From: Candidatus Sumerlaeia bacterium
GTDB lineage: Bacteria; Sumerlaeota; Sumerlaeia; SLMS01
Length of the DNA: 28,544 nucleotides
Assembly: GCA_038208905.1 (NCBI GenBank)
Contig: JBBQYG010000039.1
Coordinates: forward strand, 1-28,544
Direction: 5' to 3'
Of this stretch, positions 14,670 to 26,586 are shown one piece after another (the stretch's first letter is position 1; each line of letters starts with the position of its first letter). The notes below the pieces were generated by a model. It was given only the letters and a program-made list of their open reading frames with translations. It was not told where the DNA came from and made no database searches. The translations under genes and the position numbers were made by a program.

Positions 14670-16388
14670 TTACGGTGCCGTCTGAGCGACCTGGCGCTTG
14701 GCGAAGGGCTGGAGCGCCGCGGGGAGCGCGACGGCGTCAACCTCCGCGACGCGCTTCTCGAGCGCCAGCGCCACGGGCGCCAGCGAGGCCCGGGTGGCGG
14801 GGGCGATGGCGTCGAAGAGCGGCTTGGGATACAGCCCGATGATGAGCGCGAAGATGCCCAGCACGAGGAGCTGGCCCCACTCGCGCGGGACGAGGTCCGT
14901 CAGGCCGCCATTCTTCTCCTCGTCCAGCTTGCCGAAGAACGTCTTCTGGTACATGATCAGCAGATACACGGCGCCAAAGATGACGCCCGAGGCGGCGCCC
15001 GCGGCGACGACCCACGTGTAGTTGGCCATCCCCATCGACGCGGCCCAGCTATACGGGTCCTGAGCTTCCATCAGAATCGGCAGGTTATTCATCGAACCGA
15101 TGATGATCGCGAATTCGCCGATGAACCCGTTGAGCCCGGGAAGACCCACGCTGCTCAGGACCATGATCATCGTGAGCACGGCGAAGATCGGGAGGTTCCT
15201 GGCCAGCCCGCCAAAGTCGCTCATCTGTCGCGTATGGGTGCGTTCGTAGATCATGCCGACCGCGAGGAAGAGTCCGCTGGTCGAGATGCCGTGGTTGATC
15301 ATCTGCATCACCGCGCCGCTAACGCCCTGGGGGTTCATGGAGAAGATGCCGAGCACCACGAATCCCATGTGGGACACCGACGAGTAGGCGACCAGGCGCT
15401 TGATGTCCGTCTGCACGATGGCGGTCATGGCGCCATAGATGATGGCGATGACGGCCAGCCACGAAATCGCGGGGGCAAAGGCCACCGACGCATCGGGGAA
15501 GAGCGGCAGGCAAAAGCGCAGGATGCCGTAGCCGCCCGTCTTGAGCAGCACGCCCGCCAGGATCACGGAGCCCGCCGTCGGCGCCTCGGTGTGGGCGTCG
15601 GGGAGCCACGTGTGCAGCGGGAACAGCGGCACCTTGATCGCAAACGCGAGGAACAACGCCAGGAACGGCAGCATCGCCGTGTGGAAGGTGGCGAGGGCTC
15701 CGGCACCGGTCTGGGTGGCGAGAAGGACCTCGTAGGAGTAGGTCTTCACGTACTCGATCTCGCCCGTGGCTGTGTTCAGCGCGCCGTTGTTGTAGTACAT
15801 CCAGATCATGCCGATCAGCATCAGCACCGACCCGAAGAGCGTATAGAGCACGAACTTGATCGTGGCGTAGTAGCGGTTCTTGGAACCCCAGATGCCGATC
15901 ATGAAATACAGCGGGATCAGCATCAGTTCCCAGAACATGTAGAACAGGAAAAGGTCCGTGGCCAGGAAAGTGCCAAGGATCGCCGTCTGGATCAGCATCA
16001 GGTAGAAGAAGAATTCCTTCTGGCGCTTCTCGATCGCCGTCCAGGAGCAGAGGACGCCAAAGATGCCGAGGATACCCGTCAGCACCAGCATCACCATCGA
16101 GAGGTTGTCGACGCCCACCGAGTAGCCGATGGAGAACTCCGGGAGCCACGCGAGGTACTCGCGGAACTGGAAGGTGGAAGCCACCTCCCTCATGGCACCG
16201 CCGCCAACGGGAACGCTGACGATATTGCTGACGCTGCCGCTCCAGTCGAATCGCGCGGCGAGGAACAGGATCAGGACCAAATCCAGAATTACCACGCCCA
16301 GCGCGCCGTACTTGACCTGGCGGGCCGGCAGGCTGGCGCACAGGATGGCGCCGAGGAAGACCGGGAGAAAGATAATCAGGCTGAGCAT
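14670..16388 (-). CDS. nuoM: NADH-quinone oxidoreductase subunit M
   Basis: DLFLFYMFWELMLIP, KVPLFPLHTWLPDAHTEAPTAGSVILAGVLLK, AYSSVSHMG and GLPGLNGFIGE motifs. Confidence 0.96.
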   Translation of the reverse strand: MLSLIIFLPVFLGAILCASLPARQVKYGALGVVILDLVLILFLAARFDWSGSVSNIVSVPVGGGAMREVASTFQFREYLAWLPEFSIGYSVGVDNLSMVMLVLTGILGIFGVLCSWTAIEKRQKEFFFYLMLIQTAILGTFLATDLFLFYMFWELMLIPLYFMIGIWGSKNRYYATIKFVLYTLFGSVLMLIGMIWMYYNNGALNTATGEIEYVKTYSYEVLLATQTGAGALATFHTAMLPFLALFLAFAIKVPLFPLHTWLPDAHTEAPTAGSVILAGVLLKTGGYGILRFCLPLFPDASVAFAPAISWLAVIAIIYGAMTAIVQTDIKRLVAYSSVSHMGFVVLGIFSMNPQGVSGAVMQMINHGISTSGLFLAVGMIYERTHTRQMSDFGGLARNLPIFAVLTMIMVLSSVGLPGLNGFIGEFAIIIGSMNNLPILMEAQDPYSWAASMGMANYTWVVAAGAASGVIFGAVYLLIMYQKTFFGKLDEEKNGGLTDLVPREWGQLLVLGIFALIIGLYPKPLFDAIAPATRASLAPVALALEKRVAEVDAVALPAALQPFAKRQVAQTAP

Positions 16389-16412: not shown

Positions 16413-18881
16413 TTAGTCGGTTGCCAGCGCCGTTACGGCAGGCGCGGCGGGGGCGGAAATTTTGGTGGCGGGCGGCGGGGTCAGGCGGGGGCCCTGCTTC
16501 TCCAGGAACGTGGCCAGCCCCAGCGCGAAGTACAACACGAAGAGGCACACGCCGATGAACATCACCAGTCCGTAAACCTGGACTTGGCCGTTCTGCAGGC
16601 GGCGGAACTCGTTGGCGCAACTACGCGCGAACGATCCCACGCCGTTCACCGCGCCATCGACCACCTTCTTGTCGAACCACAGCACGGCGGCGTACAGACG
16701 CATGAATCCGCGCACGAAGATCGAATCGTTGATGTCGTCCCACCACCAGCCGTTCCAGGAGATATTCCACAGGGGGCTGAAGGCGCGCTTCATCTTCTCA
16801 GACTTGCTCAGGTCGCCGCTGCCATAGAGCACCCACGCGATGCCGAGACCAAGCGCGGCGAGCAGGACGGAGACAACGGCCAGCATCACCTCCGGACCAT
16901 GATAGCCGAAGTACATCGCGCCGTCCTTGGTCACGTTGCCCACGACGATCGGCCCATAGGGAGCCGCCGCGCCGGTGTAGCCGTGGAACTGCGTCGCGAT
17001 ATTGTGGACGCCGCGGTCGGTGACGGGCTCCAGGAAGTGGTGGAAGGCGCTGTTGAAATCGCCGAGCGGGAGCAGGCCCTTGGGCACGTTGAAGAAGCCC
17101 ACAACCAGCGAGGCCACCGCCAACACCATCAGCACGCCGGTGATGGAGAGGGGCGATTCCTTGACCTTCTCGAACTCCACGCCGTGATGCGCGTGGGCGT
17201 CGTGGCCGTGGTCGTCACGATGGTCGTGGTGATGGTCGTCATGCCCCGCATGGGCCATGCGCGTCTTGCCAAAGAAGGCGAGGAACAGCGACCGGCCCAT
17301 GTAGAAGGCCGTCATGATCGCCGTCAGCACCGCCAGCACCCAGAGCACCGTGTAGAACCCGTTCCCCTGGCCGGCCATATAGACGAAGTACAGGATCTCG
17401 TCCTTGGAGAAGAACCCGGCAAACGGCACGATGCCCGCAATGGCCAGCGTGGCGGATAGGTACGCAAGGAACGTGAGAGGCATCTTGGACTTCAAGCCGC
17501 CCATCTTGAACACGTCCTCCTCGTGGTGCAGAGCGTGGATGATCGATCCCGCTGCGAGGAAGAGGCACGCCTTGAAGAAGGCGTGGGTGAACACGTGGAA
17601 GATGCCCACGGCGAATCCGCCCACGCCGATGGCGAGGAACATGAAGCCGAGCTGGGACACCGTGGAGTAGGCGAGGATCTTCTTGATGCCGCGCTGCGTC
17701 AGGCCGACCACCGCCGCCACAAACGCCGTGGCCGCGCCGATCACCGCGATCACCACCAGCGCCGAGGGCGCCAGCATGTAGAGCACGTTGAGCCGCGCCA
17801 GCATATACACGCCCGCCGTGACCATCGTCGCCGCGTGAATCAGCGCCGAAACCGGGGTCGGGCCCGCCATGGCGTCGGGCAGCCAGATGAAGAGCGGAAT
17901 CTGCGCGCTCTTGCCCGTGGCGCCCAGAAACAGCAGCAGCGCCGCCGCCGTGATGATCGCGCCGTTGTAGCCAAAGCCCGCGGGCACCTCGCCCACGGAA
18001 AGCTTGTGGATCACTTCCTGGAAGTCCAGCGTGCCAAGTCCCCAGAACAGCAGCCCCATGCCCAGGATCAGGCCGAAGTCGCCGACGCGGTTCGCCACGA
18101 AGGCCTTCTTGCCCGCGTCGGAACACGACAGCTTCTCGCTGAACGGGCGGTCGTAGTAGTATCCAATGAGCAGGTAGGAGCAAAGGCCGACGCCCTCCCA
18201 CCCGATGAACATCACGGCGAAGTTGGCGCCGAGCACCAGCGTGTACATCGACGCGGCGAAGAGCGCCATGTAGCTGAAGAAGCGCGCATAGCCCTCGTCC
18301 AGCACCACGTGGCCGTTGCGCTCCTCCTTCATATAGCCCGTGGCATAGATGAACACCAGCGTGCCGACGAAGCTGACGAACATCAGGAAGACGGCGGTGA
18401 GTTGGTCCACGTGGAGCGCGAGGTCGATGACCATCGACTTCTCTCCGGAGAAGACCGCGGGAATATCGATCCAGCGCCACAGCGAAACGTAGCCGCCCTG
18501 GCCGCCGCGGAACTCCGTCTCCCAGGGCTTCACATTGGCGGGGTCGGCGACGCGGATGAAGGTGTACTGCGCCTTCATCGCCTCCTGGCCCTCGTGGCTC
18601 AGGCCGTTCCAGTAATTCATCCCCGCGTCGGCGCTATGCGTCGCCGCGTGGGCGTGCTCGGTGGCGGCATGGTCGCCGCCCTCGTGGGCGCCGTGCGCGA
18701 TGTGCGGCGCGGCGGACTTCACCTGCATGAAAACGAGCGTGGCGATGATGAACGTGGAGCCCATCGCGCCCGCGGAAATCAACCCCGCCAGCGCGCCAAG
18801 ACGCTTGCAGAAGACACCGTTGACCAGGGCGGCCAGCGCCATGATCGCGGGAATAAGCCAGACGAATCCAATCGCGTCCAT
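16413..18881 (-). CDS. nuoL: NADH-quinone oxidoreductase subunit L (822 aa, His-rich insertions)
   Basis: GWEGVGLCSYLLIG, NRVGD, GKSAQIPL..WLPDAMAGPTPVSALIHAATMV, THAFFKA and GFFSKDEI motifs; AGGAGG RBS at 18894-18899. Confidence 0.96.
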   Translation of the reverse strand: MDAIGFVWLIPAIMALAALVNGVFCKRLGALAGLISAGAMGSTFIIATLVFMQVKSAAPHIAHGAHEGGDHAATEHAHAATHSADAGMNYWNGLSHEGQEAMKAQYTFIRVADPANVKPWETEFRGGQGGYVSLWRWIDIPAVFSGEKSMVIDLALHVDQLTAVFLMFVSFVGTLVFIYATGYMKEERNGHVVLDEGYARFFSYMALFAASMYTLVLGANFAVMFIGWEGVGLCSYLLIGYYYDRPFSEKLSCSDAGKKAFVANRVGDFGLILGMGLLFWGLGTLDFQEVIHKLSVGEVPAGFGYNGAIITAAALLLFLGATGKSAQIPLFIWLPDAMAGPTPVSALIHAATMVTAGVYMLARLNVLYMLAPSALVVIAVIGAATAFVAAVVGLTQRGIKKILAYSTVSQLGFMFLAIGVGGFAVGIFHVFTHAFFKACLFLAAGSIIHALHHEEDVFKMGGLKSKMPLTFLAYLSATLAIAGIVPFAGFFSKDEILYFVYMAGQGNGFYTVLWVLAVLTAIMTAFYMGRSLFLAFFGKTRMAHAGHDDHHHDHRDDHGHDAHAHHGVEFEKVKESPLSITGVLMVLAVASLVVGFFNVPKGLLPLGDFNSAFHHFLEPVTDRGVHNIATQFHGYTGAAAPYGPIVVGNVTKDGAMYFGYHGPEVMLAVVSVLLAALGLGIAWVLYGSGDLSKSEKMKRAFSPLWNISWNGWWWDDINDSIFVRGFMRLYAAVLWFDKKVVDGAVNGVGSFARSCANEFRRLQNGQVQVYGLVMFIGVCLFVLYFALGLATFLEKQGPRLTPPPATKISAPAAPAVTALATD

Positions 18882-18886
18882 GCGGG

Positions 18887-19216
18887 TCAGGAGCCTCCTG
18901 CGCCGACGGGCGCGCTTCCGAGGGATAGGGAGATGATATTCTGCCAGGGAATGAGCGTGCGGCGCACCGGCTCCACATCGATGGACTGCGCTTCCGCGTC
19001 CACCAGCAGGCCCCGCTCCGTCACGTCCAGAATGTTAATCACATTCACGTCCGCCGCCGGACCAGCCTGCCATTGGGACTGGGAGCGCGAGACGAGGAAA
19101 TACGGAAGCTCGCGGAACTCCACCTCCACGTGCGGCGCCCCGCAGACATCCACGGCGTCCAGCAGGTCGCGCAGCGCGGCCTCTGCGCGAGGCGTGCATC
19201 GACAGGGCGAAAGCAT
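18887..19216 (-). CDS. Hypothetical 109-aa protein (orfX) embedded between nuoN and nuoL
   Basis: ATG 19216 overlaps the nuoN stop (TGATG). The stop at 18887-18889 lies 5 bp before the nuoL start, and the nuoL RBS is inside its last codons. Sequence MLSPCRCTPRAEAALRDLL...RRTLIPWQNIISLSL... It is the C-terminal part of track ORF 18887..20716. Confidence 0.8.
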   Translation of the reverse strand: MLSPCRCTPRAEAALRDLLDAVDVCGAPHVEVEFRELPYFLVSRSQSQWQAGPAADVNVINILDVTERGLLVDAEAQSIDVEPVRRTLIPWQNIISLSLGSAPVGAGGS

Positions 19217-20820
19217 CAGGGCGCGATCCCGCTGGCCAGGTGCTGGCCGACGCCGATGAAGAGCCACGGCAGCAGGCCGAGGACGAAGATCAGGATCCCC
19301 GCGCCGATCAGGTACATGCGCGTGAAGGAGGCGCTGGTGAACAGGCCGCACTGGTGGGCGCCCGTTCCACAGAGCGCCACGGCGCCATCCCCGGTCTCCG
19401 GCTCGCGCATGAACATCCGCGTCACCAGGCCAAGGTAGTAGAACGCCGACACCACGGAGGCCAGCACGGCGATCACCACCACGGCGGTGAAGCCATACTG
19501 CACGCCCTCCTTGAAGAGGTAGAACTTGCCCATGAACCCGATCGTCGGCGGCGTGAAGCCGATGCCCACCAGGCTGAACATCGCGATGCCCATGCCGAAG
19601 GCCGCGCCCGGATTGCGCCAGAACAGGCCGCGATAGGCCTCCATGTTGGACTCGCCGTCCAGGTGATACGCCAGCCCGAAGGCCAGGACGTTCATGATCG
19701 TATATCCGCCGAGGTAGAGCGCGATGGCCTGACGCACTGTTGCCGTCGCCGTCGCCAAATCGTCGCCCTGAAGCAGCGCCGGCAGGGAGACGATCACCAG
19801 CACGCCAACCATCATGTAGCCCGTGTGCGCGACGGAGGAGTAGGCCATCATGCGCTTGAAGTCCTTCTGAACCAGCGCCGCCAGATTCCCCCAGATCATC
19901 GAGACGATGGCAACCAGCCCGATGATGAATGCGGCGGAACCGGCAAACGGCTCCCAGAAGGAGAGCGCCGTGACCAAGTGAATCAGGAAAGCGAACGCCG
20001 CGACTTTGGAACCCGTGGCGATCATCATCGCCGTGGGCGTATTGGCGCCTTGGTACACGTCGGGCGCCCACATGTGGAAGGGCGCAAGGGTCAGCTTGAA
20101 GCAAAGCCCGGCGAAAACCAGCGTGAAGCCCAGGTATATCCACACCGGGTTGACGGCAACCGTCTCGCCCGTGATGAGCGTGTTGTAGCCGCTCGCCAGC
20201 ACCTGGCCCATCAGGTCGAGCCGCGTCGTCTGCGTGGCGCCATATAGGAAGGCCATGCCGAACACCAGCAGCGCCGATGCAAAGGCGCCGAGGATGAAAT
20301 ACTTGAAGGCGGCCTCGGCGGCGCGCCCGCTGCGCCGGTCGATCCCCGTCAGCACATAGAGGGAGAGCGACATGATCTCCAGAGAGATAAACGCCGTGAG
20401 CAACTCGTTGGACATCGCGAGGAGGCACATGCCCAGCGAAGCGAAGATGATCAGCGTGTAGAACTCGCCCGAGGGGATGTTGCGGCGCTCGATCAGGCGC
20501 GGGGCCAGAATCACCATCAGCAAGCCCGCAAAGAGGCAGACGATGCAGCAGATCTGGGCGAAGAAATCGCCGTAGAAGGCGCCCTCGACAAACGGACGCG
20601 ACGGCACGAGGCCCATGAAGAACGATGCGATGGCGGCGATGAGAGTGACGCCGGCGATCGGCGGCAGGATTCGGCGGCTGCCCTTCTTGTCGCTGGCGGC
20701 ATCGGCCACCAGGCAAACAATTCCCCCCAGGAGGAGGATCAGGAAGGGGGCCAGCGATGCCAGACTGATGTCTGGCACGTAGGCGACGATGTCCTGGATT
20801 TCCTTGTTGATCGGGTTCAT
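19216..20820 (-). CDS. nuoN: NADH-quinone oxidoreductase subunit N
   Basis: LEIMSLSLYVL, EAAFKYFILG, FKL..APFHMWAPDVYQGA, KRMMAYSSVAHTGY and PPTIGFMGK motifs. ATG 20820 avoids overlap with nuoK. Confidence 0.95.
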   Translation of the reverse strand: MNPINKEIQDIVAYVPDISLASLAPFLILLLGGIVCLVADAASDKKGSRRILPPIAGVTLIAAIASFFMGLVPSRPFVEGAFYGDFFAQICCIVCLFAGLLMVILAPRLIERRNIPSGEFYTLIIFASLGMCLLAMSNELLTAFISLEIMSLSLYVLTGIDRRSGRAAEAAFKYFILGAFASALLVFGMAFLYGATQTTRLDLMGQVLASGYNTLITGETVAVNPVWIYLGFTLVFAGLCFKLTLAPFHMWAPDVYQGANTPTAMMIATGSKVAAFAFLIHLVTALSFWEPFAGSAAFIIGLVAIVSMIWGNLAALVQKDFKRMMAYSSVAHTGYMMVGVLVIVSLPALLQGDDLATATATVRQAIALYLGGYTIMNVLAFGLAYHLDGESNMEAYRGLFWRNPGAAFGMGIAMFSLVGIGFTPPTIGFMGKFYLFKEGVQYGFTAVVVIAVLASVVSAFYYLGLVTRMFMREPETGDGAVALCGTGAHQCGLFTSASFTRMYLIGAGILIFVLGLLPWLFIGVGQHLASGIAP

Positions 20821-20845: not shown

Positions 20846-21151
20846 TCAGCCGTGGAGGGAATCGTGCTCGTCGACGCGGATGTGGTGCTTGCCGCGGAAA
20901 AGCGAAATGAAGATCGCGAGGCCAACGCCCGCCTCTGCCGCGGCCACCGTCATGATGAACAGAACGAGGATGCCGCCGGAGAGAAGGCCCAGCTCGTAGG
21001 CAAACGCGACGAACGCCAGGTTGGCGGCGTTCAGCATCAGTTCCACGCTCATGAACAGCGAGATGGCGTTGCGCTTCCACATGACGCCCAGAATGCCGAT
21101 GGTAAAGAGGAGGGCGCTCAGCAGGAGGTTGGCTTCGAAGGTCAGTTCCAT
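20846..21151 (-). CDS. nuoK: NADH-quinone oxidoreductase subunit K
   Basis: [17 protein letters not shown] and [12 protein letters not shown] motifs; 101 aa. Confidence 0.96.
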
Positions 21152-21158
21152 CGGTGGA

Positions 21159-21719
21159 TCAGGCGACCTCCTCTTCGATCAGGATCTCGTTGCCGTCCTC
21201 GTCCTTGCGGCGCGCCATCACGATGGCGCCGATCACGGCTACCAGCAGCAGCACCGACGTCAGAAGGAAGGGAGCGATGTATTCGGTGAGCATCAGCGTC
21301 GCCAGCAGGATGACCTCCGGCGTTTCGCGGGCCGCGATGGCGGCCTCCTTGGCGGCGGTGGCCTTGGTTCCGCCCGAGACGGCGAAGATCTGGATCCCCG
21401 CGGCAAGCACGAAGAAGAACACGATCGCCAGCGCGCCGCCCCAGAACCGCGCGTTGCGCAGGTACCACGGCGTCGTCTCGCGCTCGCGCAGGTTGAGCAT
21501 CATGATCACGAAGAGGAACACCACCATGATCGCGCCGGCATAGACCAGGATCTGGATCAGCGCCACGAACTCCTGGCGCATCATCAGGTAGTTCACCGCG
21601 ATGCAGAACATCACGCCGACCAGGCACATGGCGCTGCTGACGGTGTTCCTGTTGAGGAGCACGCCGAGGCCGAAGGCCACGGTGATCAGGAAGAGGAGCG
21701 TATAGACAAGTCCGGCCAT
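21159..21719 (-). CDS. nuoJ: NADH-quinone oxidoreductase subunit J
   Basis: [20 protein letters not shown] motif; five hydrophobic segments. Confidence 0.95.
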
Positions 21720-21756: not shown

Positions 21757-22293
21757 TCAGTGCTTCGCCGCCCAGGGGTCCGACTTCGCCTCGGCGTCGG
21801 ACTCGGGGGTCACGTGGGAAATATAGGGATCGTAGTCGTGGTAGGTGCCGAAGCCCATTTCCACCGGGTCCAGCATGTCTTCCTTGGCCGCCACCGTGTC
21901 CGTCCGGCGGTCCATGGCCAGCTCGTAGGTCGGCCCCATGATGATGGCGTTCTCGGGACAGGCCTCCTCGCAGAAGCCGCAGAAGATGCAGCGCAGCAGG
22001 TGGATCTGGTAGATCTCCGCATAGCGCTCGCCCGCCGAAACCTGATGCTCCGGCGTGTTCTCCGCGGCCTCCAGATAGATCGCCTCCGACGGGCAGACCG
22101 CCGCGCAGAGCGAGCATCCGACGCAGCGCTCCAGGCCGTCCTCGTAGCGCTGCAGGCGATGGCGCCCGCGGAAGAACGCGGGCTGCTCGCGCTTCACTTC
22201 GGGATACTCCAGCGTCACGCTGCCCTTGCCAGCCAGGTACAGGACCATGTGGCGGGTGGCGATCGAGGCGCCCTTGAGGAATTCGAGGATCAT
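21757..22293 (-). CDS. nuoI: NADH-quinone oxidoreductase subunit I
   Basis: T..YPE and FRGRH motifs; two 4Fe-4S motifs, CVGCSLCAAVCP and CIFCGFCEEACP. Confidence 0.96.
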   Translation of the reverse strand: MILEFLKGASIATRHMVLYLAGKGSVTLEYPEVKREQPAFFRGRHRLQRYEDGLERCVGCSLCAAVCPSEAIYLEAAENTPEHQVSAGERYAEIYQIHLLRCIFCGFCEEACPENAIIMGPTYELAMDRRTDTVAAKEDMLDPVEMGFGTYHDYDPYISHVTPESDAEAKSDPWAAKH

Positions 22294-22320: not shown

Positions 22321-23709
22321 TTAGGAAACCAGCGCGGACCGACCGGTGGAGGTCTCCTCCGAATAGTGGCGGTAGTCCCGGGTCATCTGGGCCTTGCGGC
22401 GCGGCGAGAAGTACAGCAGGTCCCAGCCGAGGAACAGCGACAGCGTCACCGCGCCAAGGACCCATTTCGTCGCGAGTTCGATCTTTCCGTTCGGCGTCCA
22501 CATCATGTCCAGCGCCACGGCGACCGCCGTGATCACGAAGTTGATGAGGCCGAAGGGGAGCATGTACTTCCAGCCGATGTTCATGAGCTGGTCATAGCGG
22601 ACACGCGGCAGCGTGGCGCGCGCGAAGAAGAACAGGAAGATGAAGAACCCGATCTTGGCCGGCATGATCACCAGCGGACCCAGCAGGAACGATCCGATGA
22701 TCACCACCCAGTCGTATCCGCCCGTTGCCGCGCCGATCGCCACCCAGTCCAGCTGGATCGGCCCGAGGAAACCGCCAAGGAAGAGCGTGGCGCACATCGC
22801 GCCCACGATCACCATGTTGACGTATTCGCCCAGAAAGAACAGCGCGAAGCGCATCGACGAGTACTCGGTGTGGAAGCCACCGGTCAGTTCCGCCTCGCCC
22901 TCCGCCAAGTCGAACGGCAGGCGGTTGGTCTCCGCAAACATTGCGACGATGAACAGGATGAACGCCACCGGCTGGGCCACCACGTTCCAGTTCCAGAAGC
23001 CGCCGCGCTGGCCGTCCACGATGGAATACAGGTTCAGGCTGCCGCTGAGAAGCACCACGCCGATAATGGCGAGGGAGAGCGTGATCTCGTAGCTGATCAT
23101 CTGCGCCGAGGCGCGGATTCCGCCGAGGAGCGACCACTTGTTATTCGACGACCAGCCCGCCAGCGTGATGCCGTAAACGCCCACCGACGTGATCGCGAGC
23201 ACATACAGGATGCCGACGTTGGGGTTCGAGATGGCTAGGGCGATATGCTTGATCGCGCCGTTGGGACCAACCATCGCCGGATCGAGGCGCAGGAAGTTGC
23301 CCATCGCCGCCAGATTGTTCCCCTCGATCAGCGGGCCGACGGGAATCAGGCACAGCGCGAGGAACGCGGGAATCACCACGAGGCCCGGCGCCATCAGGTA
23401 CAGGACGCGGTCCACGCCACTGGGCAGGATCTCTTCCTTGAAGAAGAGCTTCACGCCGTCCAGGAAGCCGTGCAGGATGCCGAATGGGCCCGCGCGGTTG
23501 GGGCCCGGGCGATCCTGGACCCAGCCAATGATCTTGCGCTCGAGAAGGATCAGGATCGGGATGACCTGAAGCAGGCCACCGAGAATCAGCAGGATCTTGA
23601 CCAGCGCCGCCACGATGATAAAGGCGTAGGTGGCACCAATGAGGGGATCGTTGCTAAGGAAACGGCCGATGAAATCGAAGAGGGGCTGAAGGCTAAAGGG
23701 TAGCTGCAT
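22321..23709 (-). CDS. nuoH: NADH-quinone oxidoreductase subunit H (462 aa)
   Basis: ERK..GWVQDRPGPNR, AQMISYE, AETNRLPFDLAEGEAEL.GGFHTEYS and RVRYDQLM motifs. Confidence 0.96.
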   Translation of the reverse strand: MQLPFSLQPLFDFIGRFLSNDPLIGATYAFIIVAALVKILLILGGLLQVIPILILLERKIIGWVQDRPGPNRAGPFGILHGFLDGVKLFFKEEILPSGVDRVLYLMAPGLVVIPAFLALCLIPVGPLIEGNNLAAMGNFLRLDPAMVGPNGAIKHIALAISNPNVGILYVLAITSVGVYGITLAGWSSNNKWSLLGGIRASAQMISYEITLSLAIIGVVLLSGSLNLYSIVDGQRGGFWNWNVVAQPVAFILFIVAMFAETNRLPFDLAEGEAELTGGFHTEYSSMRFALFFLGEYVNMVIVGAMCATLFLGGFLGPIQLDWVAIGAATGGYDWVVIIGSFLLGPLVIMPAKIGFFIFLFFFARATLPRVRYDQLMNIGWKYMLPFGLINFVITAVAVALDMMWTPNGKIELATKWVLGAVTLSLFLGWDLLYFSPRRKAQMTRDYRHYSEETSTGRSALVS

Positions 23710-23895: not shown

Positions 23896-26586
23896 CTAGC
23901 CGACTTCCACGGGCTCCCTGGCCACCACTTCCAGCCGCGCCGTGACCGCGGAGACCTGATTCCGGAAGCTGATCGGTCCAAGCCCCTCGGGAACATACAA
24001 CACCCCCGGGGCTGGCCCCCGGCGGACAATCACGTCCACCTCGTGGCTTTCGCCGTTGATGTGGAGGATCGCCCGGTGGCGGGCAAACGGGTCCTCGATG
24101 CCGAGGCCCTTCGCATCCGCCGGGTTGATCTCCGCATAGGGGGTCGCCTTGAGCATCTCGGCGATGGAAGCGTTGTTCAGGTGATAGTCGTCTCCCTGGC
24201 CGTGGGCGCCCCATGTCACCAGAAACTCGCCATCGGCCGCAGGGGCTGACGGAGCGGGAAGGCCCGCCGCCTCGACGGCCTCGCCCTTCCAGCGCAGATG
24301 AGCGCCGTCGATCCGGTAGTCACCGGGGTTGTACAGCGGCGAGTGCTTGCGCGCGCCACCCGGATCGGAGATCGACACATCGTTGCGCGGCCCGCGCAGG
24401 TTCATGGCCTGAAAGGAGCCTTGGAAACCCGGCGCGATCAGCGGCATCATCTCGGCAAACACGTCGGCGACGCTCTCATAGTCGAACTCGTCGGAGCCCA
24501 TCAGCGTGGCGATTCCGGTGAGGGCCTCCCACTCCGGCCGGCTGCCGCCGGCGGGGGGCTCGGCCTCGGTCAGGCGGGCCAGATTGCCCTCGAGGTCGGC
24601 ATAGGTGCCGTCCTTCTCCAGATTGGAGGCCGCGGCGAGGAACACCGTGGCGTGAGCGGCGAAGTCGGACTCGAAGAGGTCGGAAAGAACGAAGAACTCC
24701 AGCTTCTGCAACGCCGCGATCAGGCGCTCGCGATCGGCGTAGGCATGAAGCGTATCGGCCCCAAGCGCCACCAGCGCGCGGATGCGGCCCGACTCGATGG
24801 CCTCGATCAACCCGTGGGCCGCAAGGCCACCATCGGTCGGGAGCGACACATTTGCATCGACGCCCCACGCCTGGCGAACGCGCTTCTCGTCAGAGGGAAG
24901 AACCCCGGGCTGCGCACCCACCGCATACAGCCCGAAGGCGTTCCGCGCGCGCATGGTGGGAGTGTAGCCCCACGCGGCGCCGAGCGCCGCCTTGAGCCCC
25001 AGCGCGGCGGGGACCTCGGAGGCTAGACCCCGGCTTCCCATGTCATCGAGATTGTGGATCAGCAGCCCCTTGCGATAGGAGGCGGAGAGCAGTTCGACCA
25101 ACTGGCCGACGCGCTCGGCGGTGACATTGAGAAGTCCCGCCAGCTCGTCCTTCGCGGCGGCGGTGCCACCGATGGCCTTTGCAAGAAGCGAGAGAACCTT
25201 GGCGATGGCGCCCGGCTGGCAGTGGAAACGCCACGCGGTCTCTGCCGAGAGGTAGGGATCGTGATGATGGCCGAGGAGCACGAGGGGCTTGCCGTTGAGG
25301 CGGGCGTGCTCCCTAACACGCATCGCAAAGACCGGCGTCGTGTGAAGGTAGTCGCCGCTGAGGACGATGGCCGCGTCGAAGCCATCCTCCAGATCGCCAT
25401 CGGCGTGCTGGATCGCCACCGTGGCGGCGTCGGCGGACTCCTGAGTATCCAGCGAAACGCGCCAGTCGATATTGTCGGTGCGGAGCACCGTGCGCGCGAA
25501 CTTCGCGGCGAGGTAGCCCTCCTCCATCGTGGCGCGCGGGCTGACGAGGACGGCGATGCTATCGCCACCGCTCGCGGACTTCACGCGGCCAAGGCCCTCC
25601 GCGGCTTGGCGGACAGCCTCGGTAAACGAAGAGGGAAGCGGCGATCCGCCGATGCGGATGCGGCTCTCGTCCCAACGCGACTCGTGGCGGGAGAAGTCCG
25701 AGCCAAAGCGCGTGATATTGTCGATGAACTCCTCGGTGTCCTCGTTGACCGTATAGCCGTCGTGGATCTTGCGGGAGGGCGGCGTCGTGCGGTAGAGCTT
25801 CCCGTTGCGGGTCCAGTGCGTGACCTTCGCGCCGCTGGCGTCCCAGATGCTGGTGGACTGCGTCTGGAGCAGCTCCCACACGCGGGCCTTGAAGCGGAAC
25901 GGCTTGCTGGTGAGGCAGCCGACCGGGCAGATGTCGATCACGTTGCCGCTGAGAATATTCGAGACGGGCCCCTGACCGAAGGTGCCGATGTAGTTCCCCT
26001 CGCCGCGGTCGAACACGCCCATGACGTGCTCGCCGGCGACCTCGTCGCAGAAGCGCACGCAGCGCGTGCACATGATGCAGCGGTTGCGCTCGATGTCGAT
26101 CAGCGGGTCGGCCTGGGGCTTGGTGAACTTGCGCTTCTTGTCGGCCATGCGGGCGTGCCCGGTGCCGTACTCCATGCTGTAGCGCTGGAGCATGCACTCC
26201 CCGCCGCGGTCGCAGATCGGGCAATCGAGCGGGTGATTCGCCAGCAGGAACTCCATCATGCCATTCTGGCATTCCTTCGCCAGGGCGGAGTCGGTGAACA
26301 CGTGCATCCCCGCGCTGATGGGGGTTTGGCAGCCGATGACGGGCTTGGGCGCGGGGGAAAGCTTGCCGTCGCGGCCCGGCATGTGGACCTCGACCAGGCA
26401 GAGGCGGCAGTTGCCCGCGACGCTGAGCGAGGGGTGCCAGCAGTAGTGGGGCACATAAACGTCCTCCCGCGCGGCCACGGTAATGATCGTCTCGCCCTTG
26501 AATCCGGTGACCTCGCGGCCATTGAGGACGATCTTGACCTGCTCGGTGCCGGGCTTGAGCGCGGGATGGATGGTTTGATCGGACAT
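23896..26586 (-). CDS. nuoG: NADH-quinone oxidoreductase subunit G (896 aa)
   Basis: N1b: YCWH...GNCRLC...GC. N5: HPLDCPICDRGGEC. N4: CIMCTRC...CPVG. C-terminal molybdopterin-oxidoreductase-like domains (EKDGTY...G; INPADA..LG). The true start is ATG 26586 (MSDQT), not the track's 28332. Confidence 0.93.
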   Translation of the reverse strand: MSDQTIHPALKPGTEQVKIVLNGREVTGFKGETIITVAAREDVYVPHYCWHPSLSVAGNCRLCLVEVHMPGRDGKLSPAPKPVIGCQTPISAGMHVFTDSALAKECQNGMMEFLLANHPLDCPICDRGGECMLQRYSMEYGTGHARMADKKRKFTKPQADPLIDIERNRCIMCTRCVRFCDEVAGEHVMGVFDRGEGNYIGTFGQGPVSNILSGNVIDICPVGCLTSKPFRFKARVWELLQTQSTSIWDASGAKVTHWTRNGKLYRTTPPSRKIHDGYTVNEDTEEFIDNITRFGSDFSRHESRWDESRIRIGGSPLPSSFTEAVRQAAEGLGRVKSASGGDSIAVLVSPRATMEEGYLAAKFARTVLRTDNIDWRVSLDTQESADAATVAIQHADGDLEDGFDAAIVLSGDYLHTTPVFAMRVREHARLNGKPLVLLGHHHDPYLSAETAWRFHCQPGAIAKVLSLLAKAIGGTAAAKDELAGLLNVTAERVGQLVELLSASYRKGLLIHNLDDMGSRGLASEVPAALGLKAALGAAWGYTPTMRARNAFGLYAVGAQPGVLPSDEKRVRQAWGVDANVSLPTDGGLAAHGLIEAIESGRIRALVALGADTLHAYADRERLIAALQKLEFFVLSDLFESDFAAHATVFLAAASNLEKDGTYADLEGNLARLTEAEPPAGGSRPEWEALTGIATLMGSDEFDYESVADVFAEMMPLIAPGFQGSFQAMNLRGPRNDVSISDPGGARKHSPLYNPGDYRIDGAHLRWKGEAVEAAGLPAPSAPAADGEFLVTWGAHGQGDDYHLNNASIAEMLKATPYAEINPADAKGLGIEDPFARHRAILHINGESHEVDVIVRRGPAPGVLYVPEGLGPISFRNQVSAVTARLEVVAREPVEVG

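Follow-up and report, generated by a model that had tools for sequence, protein, structure and literature searches.

Complex I of bacteria is generally regarded as an invariable machine of 14 subunits, few lineage-specific extra subunits being known. Nqo15 and Nqo16 of Thermus are lineage-specific accessory subunits of the bacterial enzyme, and the accessory subunits of Thermus, Paracoccus and M. smegmatis bind to the peripheral arm. Extra reading frames that have stayed unassigned, the urf genes, are present in the nuo/nqo operons of Rhodobacter and Paracoccus. The ferredoxin-dependent NDH-1 of cyanobacteria and chloroplasts, a relative of complex I without NuoEFG, carries the small barrel-like accessory protein NdhS (CRR31) on its peripheral arm. 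We know of no extra subunit of bacterial complex I that is encoded among the proton-pump genes. One study describes bacterial complex I as being able to carry accessory subunits, i.e. A9 in M. smegmatis and A12, S4 and S6 in Paracoccus (PMC12361115). For the phylum Sumerlaeota, the text of the genome paper notes only the presence of nuo genes (PMC8092238), and we found no published description of the gene reported here, which the supplementary gene tables of that paper, not covered by our search, may list as hypothetical.

Gene X, located between nuoN and nuoL of a Sumerlaeota complex I operon, resembles Thermus Nqo15/Nqo16, the Paracoccus NDUFA12/S4/S6 homologues and the A9-like subunit of M. 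smegmatis in encoding a small, soluble protein confined to one lineage, in accompanying an otherwise complete NADH-type complex I and in being presumably dispensable in relatives, its association with the enzyme being a candidate one. The searches made revealed no similarity to these subunits in sequence or fold, and the gene for X lies between those of two membrane-arm pumps whereas the described accessory subunits belong to the peripheral arm. With the urf genes of Rhodobacter and Paracoccus it shares being an extra frame conserved within a complex I operon, but family, phylum and position are different. NdhS, to which the first-pass annotation had drawn an analogy, differs in that NuoF and NuoG are present here and that X has no match to any Pfam family. 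We regard X as a new family of a known kind, i.e. extra genes of complex I operons, which is set apart by its location amid the pump genes and by a predicted fold without a clear relative among solved structures.

Gene X within the complex I operon

The window, i.e. the whole stretch of 28,544 nucleotides that was analysed, carries on its minus strand a nuo operon in the order nuoG-H-I-J-K-N-X-L-M. With nuoN placed ahead of nuoL and nuoM, this order differs from the canonical L-M-N. The subunit names J, K, N, L, M and G derive from Pfam and NCBIfam matches. The features are as follows:

23896..26586, minus strand: nuoG, first gene of the operon, 896 amino acids from the ATG at 26586; Fer2_4, NADH-G_4Fe-4S_3, Fer4_Nqo3 and Molybdopterin
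22321..23709, minus strand: nuoH, open reading frame named by its position and by conserved orthologues in the same place
21757..22293, minus strand: nuoI, open reading frame named by its position between nuoH and nuoJ, by two CxxCxxCxxxCP motifs and by 68-83% identity to the matching reading frame of relatives
21159..21719, minus strand: nuoJ (PF00499)
20846..21151, minus strand: nuoK (PF00420)
19216..20820, minus strand: nuoN, 534 amino acids from the ATG at 20820 (TIGR01770, 355 bits), with K437-E438 encoded at 19507-19512
19214..19218, minus strand: TGATG, overlap of the nuoN stop (TGA, 19218-19216) and the X start, the A being common to both genes
18887..19216, minus strand: gene X, 109 codons from the ATG at 19216-19214 to the TGA at 18889-18887, encoding an acidic, soluble protein of an orphan family
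18894..18899, minus strand: AGGAGG, Shine-Dalgarno sequence of nuoL within codons 106-108 of X, 12 nt 5' of the nuoL ATG
16413..18881, minus strand: nuoL, 822 amino acids with His-rich insertions (NF005141, 613 bits)
14670..16388, minus strand: nuoM, last gene of the operon, 572 amino acids (TIGR01972, 570 bits)

A FAD-oxidoreductase-like gene lies divergently on the plus strand upstream of nuoG, and nuoD and nuoF of the same genome are found on another contig (C97). The presence of NuoF together with NuoG shows the enzyme to be of the NADH type, and the location of nuoD and nuoF together with the divergent gene upstream of nuoG means that it is encoded in at least two operons. The I-J-K-N-L order is also present in other families of the class (G025, G031), beside canonical operons ending in M-N. 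Two further Proton_antipo_M genes are located outside the nuo operon in genome G000 (contig C46, 1324-5633), probably belonging to an Mrp-type antiporter or similar.

The reading frame is present as the first-pass annotation had described: it fills the gap between nuoN and nuoL, which we measure at 334 nt, starts in the TGATG overlap and holds the nuoL Shine-Dalgarno sequence in its last codons. The nuoL ATG at 18881 follows 5 nt past its stop. The encoded protein is acidic and soluble, also as read earlier from the sequence, with a pI of 4.53 (family median 4.9, range 4.4-6.5) and GRAVY values of 0.14 and about -0.2; it is not hydrophobic and has neither a signal peptide nor a hydrophobic segment. 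The junctions on both sides are kept short among relatives. From the nuoN stop to the X start, the distance is -1 to 21 nt in the 15 genomes read base by base. From the X stop to the nuoL start, it is -4 nt (an ATGA overlap) in five and +5 nt in four of the nine genomes of family f1, and 22-46 nt in five of the six genomes of family f3, the sixth giving no value. Near X we found no internal promoter or terminator beyond the shuffled expectation, and terminator-like sites in the operon show no excess (10 versus 7.5 +/- 2.9 expected).

An open frame on its own is no proof of a gene here, since the window has a GC content of 65% and contains many long spurious open reading frames. Two shadow frames run over real nuo genes in other frames, one of 609 codons on the minus strand (18887-20716) and one of 578 codons on the plus strand (17523-19259), both being a consequence of the high GC content; the frame of X stays open across nuoN and is the tail of the 609-codon one. 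These spurious frames would fit X being no gene at all but a frame left open by chance at high GC content. Against this, the GC content at the three codon positions of X (0.72/0.47/0.79) follows the pattern of the real genes of the window, the AlphaFold models are confident, and orthologues in 19 other genomes show conservation at the amino-acid level with dN/dS ratios of 0.12-0.17. The comparative sequence data refute the chance-frame reading, to which we attach next to no credence.

Conservation, orphan status and descent of gene X

Searching 75 genomes of the phylum Sumerlaeota with a profile, we identified X in 20, with eight of ten genomes in family f1 and all 11 in family f3, and in none of the other 16 families; of 41 related genomes searched in the manner of tblastn, 20 contain it. 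Both f1 genomes without X are incomplete (80% and 75%) and have no nuoN match either, so that the operon is probably just unassembled. All 20 carriers (11 + 3 + 5 relatives and the window) have the arrangement nuoK-nuoN-X-nuoL. The 19 orthologues, which always occupy this same place, share 36-50% identity with X, compared to 44-61% for NuoN and 50-74% for NuoL, X thus evolving faster than its neighbours. Each genome yields a single match with no second copy or paralogue, and X was never found away from the nuoN-nuoL site in any genome searched. A word-indexed protein search returned seven relatives of X among 38 candidates (40-99% identity, 105-109 amino acids), one of them annotated as hypothetical in a MAG of Candidatus Sumerlaeia, and a scan of named species genomes gave 11 loci, ten in MAGs titled Candidatus Sumerlaeota or Sumerlaeia and one titled only "bacterium".

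For the two closest pairs, dN/dS is 0.117 (G010/G002) and 0.171 (G020/G024), values that are overestimates if anything, dS being above 1. In an alignment of 35 sequences the columns E33, F34, P38, R44, P90, W91, N93 and S96 are invariant, and eight further columns are at least 90% conserved. Judged by these comparisons, X is a genuine gene that codes for a protein and is held by purifying selection, and the synteny in 20 of 20 carriers bears out the earlier view that it is conserved and fixed within the complex I operon.

The conserved columns speak to the N-terminal CxC motif as well, which the first-pass annotation had listed together with a further Cys and a His. The motif is partly conserved: at least one Cys is present within the first eight residues in 35 of 37 full-length members, two N-terminally truncated sequences being left out. 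This, the conserved acidic trio E31/E33/E36 and the His-rich loops in NuoL of the same order would fit X acting as a Cys-dependent metal or redox chaperone, the CxC delivering a metal or repairing a cofactor of complex I. Yet the two full-length members P0014 and P0022 have no Cys within their first ten residues, no single Cys position is invariant, the additional residues Cys25 and His29 are unconserved, and variation in the His-rich loops of NuoL does not follow X, making such a chaperone rather improbable.

These NuoL loops deserve a description of their own. The length of 822 residues in the window is due to low-complexity insertions rich in His and Asp at 17189-17255 and about 18480-18704 (residues about 543-565 and 60-135, respectively). 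They are variable among relatives, and families f4 and f2 have instead a His/Asp-rich insertion in a different loop, after GYMKEK. NuoN of family f3 (L022-L026) has an insertion of ~60 residues that is absent in f1, f4 and f2.

Outside this clade X has no recognisable relatives. Searching 1.84 billion representative proteins with the profile gave 21 sequences, all with E <= 1e-10 and all of 86-115 amino acids, and nothing weaker, so that there are no distant relatives and no fused forms. No Pfam or NCBIfam family was found for X. Scanning 18 members against all of Pfam-A gave no family in more than two members and none that is an Ndh family; Phage_Gene33 was hit by one of the 18 at E 0.031, below the cut-off, and was taken as a chance match. 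Among the PHROGs only phrog_9981, of unknown function, was hit (7 of 18 members, best E 0.019), which is not informative. The sequence profile search of the PDB returned two matches (E 3.9 and 9.5), both being designed proteins and neither a complex I chain, and the ESM Atlas gave a best score of 0.88 to unnamed clusters with no usable named match. PADLOC matched none of 35 members, and neither this search nor the Pfam scan links X to a known mobile or defence family; with the fixed context and the non-patchy distribution, membership of a known mobile, toxin-antitoxin or defence family is not supported. As far as these searches reach, X forms a small family of its own, restricted to two families within a single order of the Sumerlaeota.

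The gene order is older than X, as judged from relatives that have the order K-N-L with nuoN abutting nuoL and no X in between, i.e. family f4 (both genomes) and family f2 (its one genome) of the same order and families f5 and f11 of the same class. A tree of concatenated NuoI, NuoJ, NuoK and NuoN, rooted on f5/f11, gives (f2,(f3,(f4,f1))) with a support of 99/98 for f4 joining f1. It follows that X was gained once before f3 split off and was then lost in f4, or that it was gained twice. The distribution of X follows the operon tree with one loss, its context being fixed in 20 of 20 genomes, and we consider a single gain with a loss in the sister family f4 to be probable. In the tree of X itself, which is short and poorly resolved, the f1 and f3 labels need two changes compared to a mean of 6.9 after shuffling, none of 500 shuffles being as low; such a tree appears not to contradict vertical descent. 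In family f4 (L016, L017, L055, L056), which has no X, the operon ends at nuoL, and an orthologue of nuoM with 59-61% identity is present on other contigs.

A real gene whose job is unrelated to complex I might have been inserted once and kept for the expression it gains from the operon. Insertions of this kind do occur: in G011 of family f2, a toxin-antitoxin pair of MntA (a nucleotidyltransferase) and HepT lies between nuoL and nuoM (L018, G011:C79, 3263-3903), and the complex I operon therefore tolerates passengers. X was lost cleanly in f4 with no visible change in NuoN or NuoL, it evolves faster than both, and the Nuo subunits have no overall excess of columns correlated with X (see below), all of which a passenger would explain. 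On the other hand, X keeps the same position in all 20 genomes across two families, its junctions stay tight, it stands alone without a partner gene, no defence, toxin-antitoxin or phage family matches it above threshold, and it is never found elsewhere. We judge it unlikely that X is such a passenger.

Predicted fold and the relation to small barrels

AlphaFold2 gave the same model of X from alignments of 18 and 35 sequences (pLDDT 83.1 and 86.4, pTM 0.76 and 0.78, respectively). Its topology is beta-alpha-beta-alpha-beta4, with these elements:

residues 2-7: strand
residues 9-18: helix
residues 28-34: strand
residues 39-48: helix
residues 60-65: strand
residues 69-73: strand
residues 86-90: strand
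residues 94-101: strand

The C-terminal tail is disordered in the models, and in family f1 it doubles as the ribosome-binding site of nuoL. The first-pass annotation had read the sequence as an N-terminal helix followed by five beta-like segments. All five segments are strands in the models, whereas the N-terminal strand 2-7 and the second helix 39-48 had been missed.

It had also placed X among the Sm/Hfq or SH3-like small barrels, an assignment that our comparisons do not support. VIA-align against 48,161 chains gave 14 and 10 chains with Z >= 2 for the two models, the top value being 2.5; small barrels of the Hfq, Sm and SH3-like types predominate among them, and none is a complex I chain. 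Hfq and Sm chains head both lists (Z 2.0-2.5, rmsd 3.4-4.8 A, 49-57 residues aligned), and designed SH3 barrels and the C-terminal domain of BirA reach Z 2.2-2.5. By the calibration that comes with VIA-align, even unmatched models usually reach Z 7-8, and we read the values of 2.0-2.5 as no match, the models hinting only at a bent sheet that may be small-barrel-like. Foldseek against the PDB gave a best E of 0.63 and TM below 0.3, the top rows being Sm proteins, and at E <= 0.001 there was no match in the PDB and no viral fold match in BFVD. At the sequence level, none of 18 X members matched the LSM or Hfq models of Pfam at E <= 1, and hhalign of the 35-sequence X profile against seven canonical Hfq proteins of the same phylum aligned one column with a probability of 0.14%, leaving the earlier by-eye alignment of IPWQNIISL with YKHAISTV of Hfq without statistical backing. 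X does share with Sm/Hfq and SH3-like small barrels, such as the Hfq-like protein of M. jannaschii (2qtx) and the designed proteins 7ur7 and 7uwy, a helix followed by bent antiparallel strands. In contrast to these, its models show an additional strand at the N-terminus and one more helix, it is acidic, and it has no Sm1/Sm2 motifs and no profile similarity.

Hfq itself has a distribution that bears on the question. A match to PF17209 above the cut-off is present in none of the 22 genomes of f1 and f3 and in neither of the two f4 genomes, compared to 46 of the 51 other genomes of the phylum. The X-carrying clade thus appears, from these genome sequences, to have lost Hfq, and on the NuoI, NuoJ, NuoK and NuoN tree the loss of Hfq and the gain of X map to the same branch. 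The complementary distribution, lying on a single branch, counts as one event and not as 66 independent genomes.

X might accordingly be thought of as a Sm/Hfq-like small-barrel RNA-binding protein, either regulating the nuo mRNA or replacing the lost Hfq. The coincidence on one branch, the Sm and Hfq chains among its sole neighbours with Z >= 2 and in the top rows of Foldseek, and a second helix with the conserved basic and aromatic residues R/K35, Y39, F40, R44 and W49 would agree with it. The structural scores, however, lie far under those of typical unmatched models, the profile comparisons with Hfq and LSM families are negative, the family is acidic, f4 lives without both X and Hfq, and the complementarity amounts to that single event; we hold an RNA-binding protein of this type to be improbable. 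In a more specific variant, X would be an Sm-like barrel, either radically diverged or arrived at by convergence, and would have assumed the part of an RNA chaperone or regulator upon the loss of Hfq in the ancestor of f1, f3 and f4, its level being tied to respiratory gene expression via the operon; we consider this highly improbable.

A candidate accessory protein of the membrane arm

A role in complex I is the best bet for X in view of its position, its tight coupling to both neighbours and its fixed synteny across two families. We put it at about even chances that X is a lineage-specific protein of the cytoplasm that serves the membrane arm of complex I, be it as an accessory subunit or as an assembly factor. 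According to this model, the nuoGHIJKN-X-LM operon would supply X along with the antiporter-like subunits NuoN and NuoL, and X would bind to complex I. It would then either be a supernumerary subunit, seated on the membrane arm at its cytoplasmic face, or assist in the assembly of this arm. The conserved patch formed by E31/E33/F34/E36/P38/Y39 and P90/W91/N93/S96 would be the contact surface, presumably facing positively charged cytoplasmic loops. Less likely than this broader reading, though with an appreciable chance, X would be the first accessory subunit known from the distal part of the membrane arm in bacteria, and one with a fold not seen before.

X is presumably dispensable, since its sister family f4 does without the gene in an otherwise equivalent operon, and because f4 and f2 both keep the order K-N-L without X, this type of complex I does not need it. 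Predicting the complex of X (alignment of 35 rows) with full-length NuoL (alignment of 13 rows) gave a score of 0.00 in both runs, which is evidence neither way. Comparing the subunits, we found no indel in NuoN or NuoL that is common to X-bearing genomes and missing from X-less ones. The His/Asp-rich loop insertion of NuoL that is found only in the X-less families f4 and f2 was considered as an anticorrelate of X and rejected, the X-less outgroups f5 and f11 aligning without it.

Single residues do follow the presence of X. K437-E438 of NuoN, within an FKEG sequence, is invariant in ten of ten X-bearing genomes and different in five of five X-less ones, and E125 of NuoM is invariant in the same ten and different in three of three X-less genomes. 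Both sites are located in what we take to be short cytoplasmic loops near the N/M interface. There is no excess of Nuo columns correlated with X, as the f1+f3 pattern accounts for 29.4 columns compared to 33.8 for the control pattern f3+f4 (two sequences per family); with the control being equally frequent overall, the correlated residues of NuoN and NuoM are a lead and not evidence.

With X there is now a concrete candidate that may serve the pump modules of complex I as an accessory part or an assembly helper, and family f4 offers a natural X knockout for comparison. With a predicted fold that has no clear match among solved structures, solving the structure of X would be informative in itself. 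The coincident loss of Hfq in the clade carrying X is a separate and testable curiosity concerning RNA regulation in Sumerlaeota.
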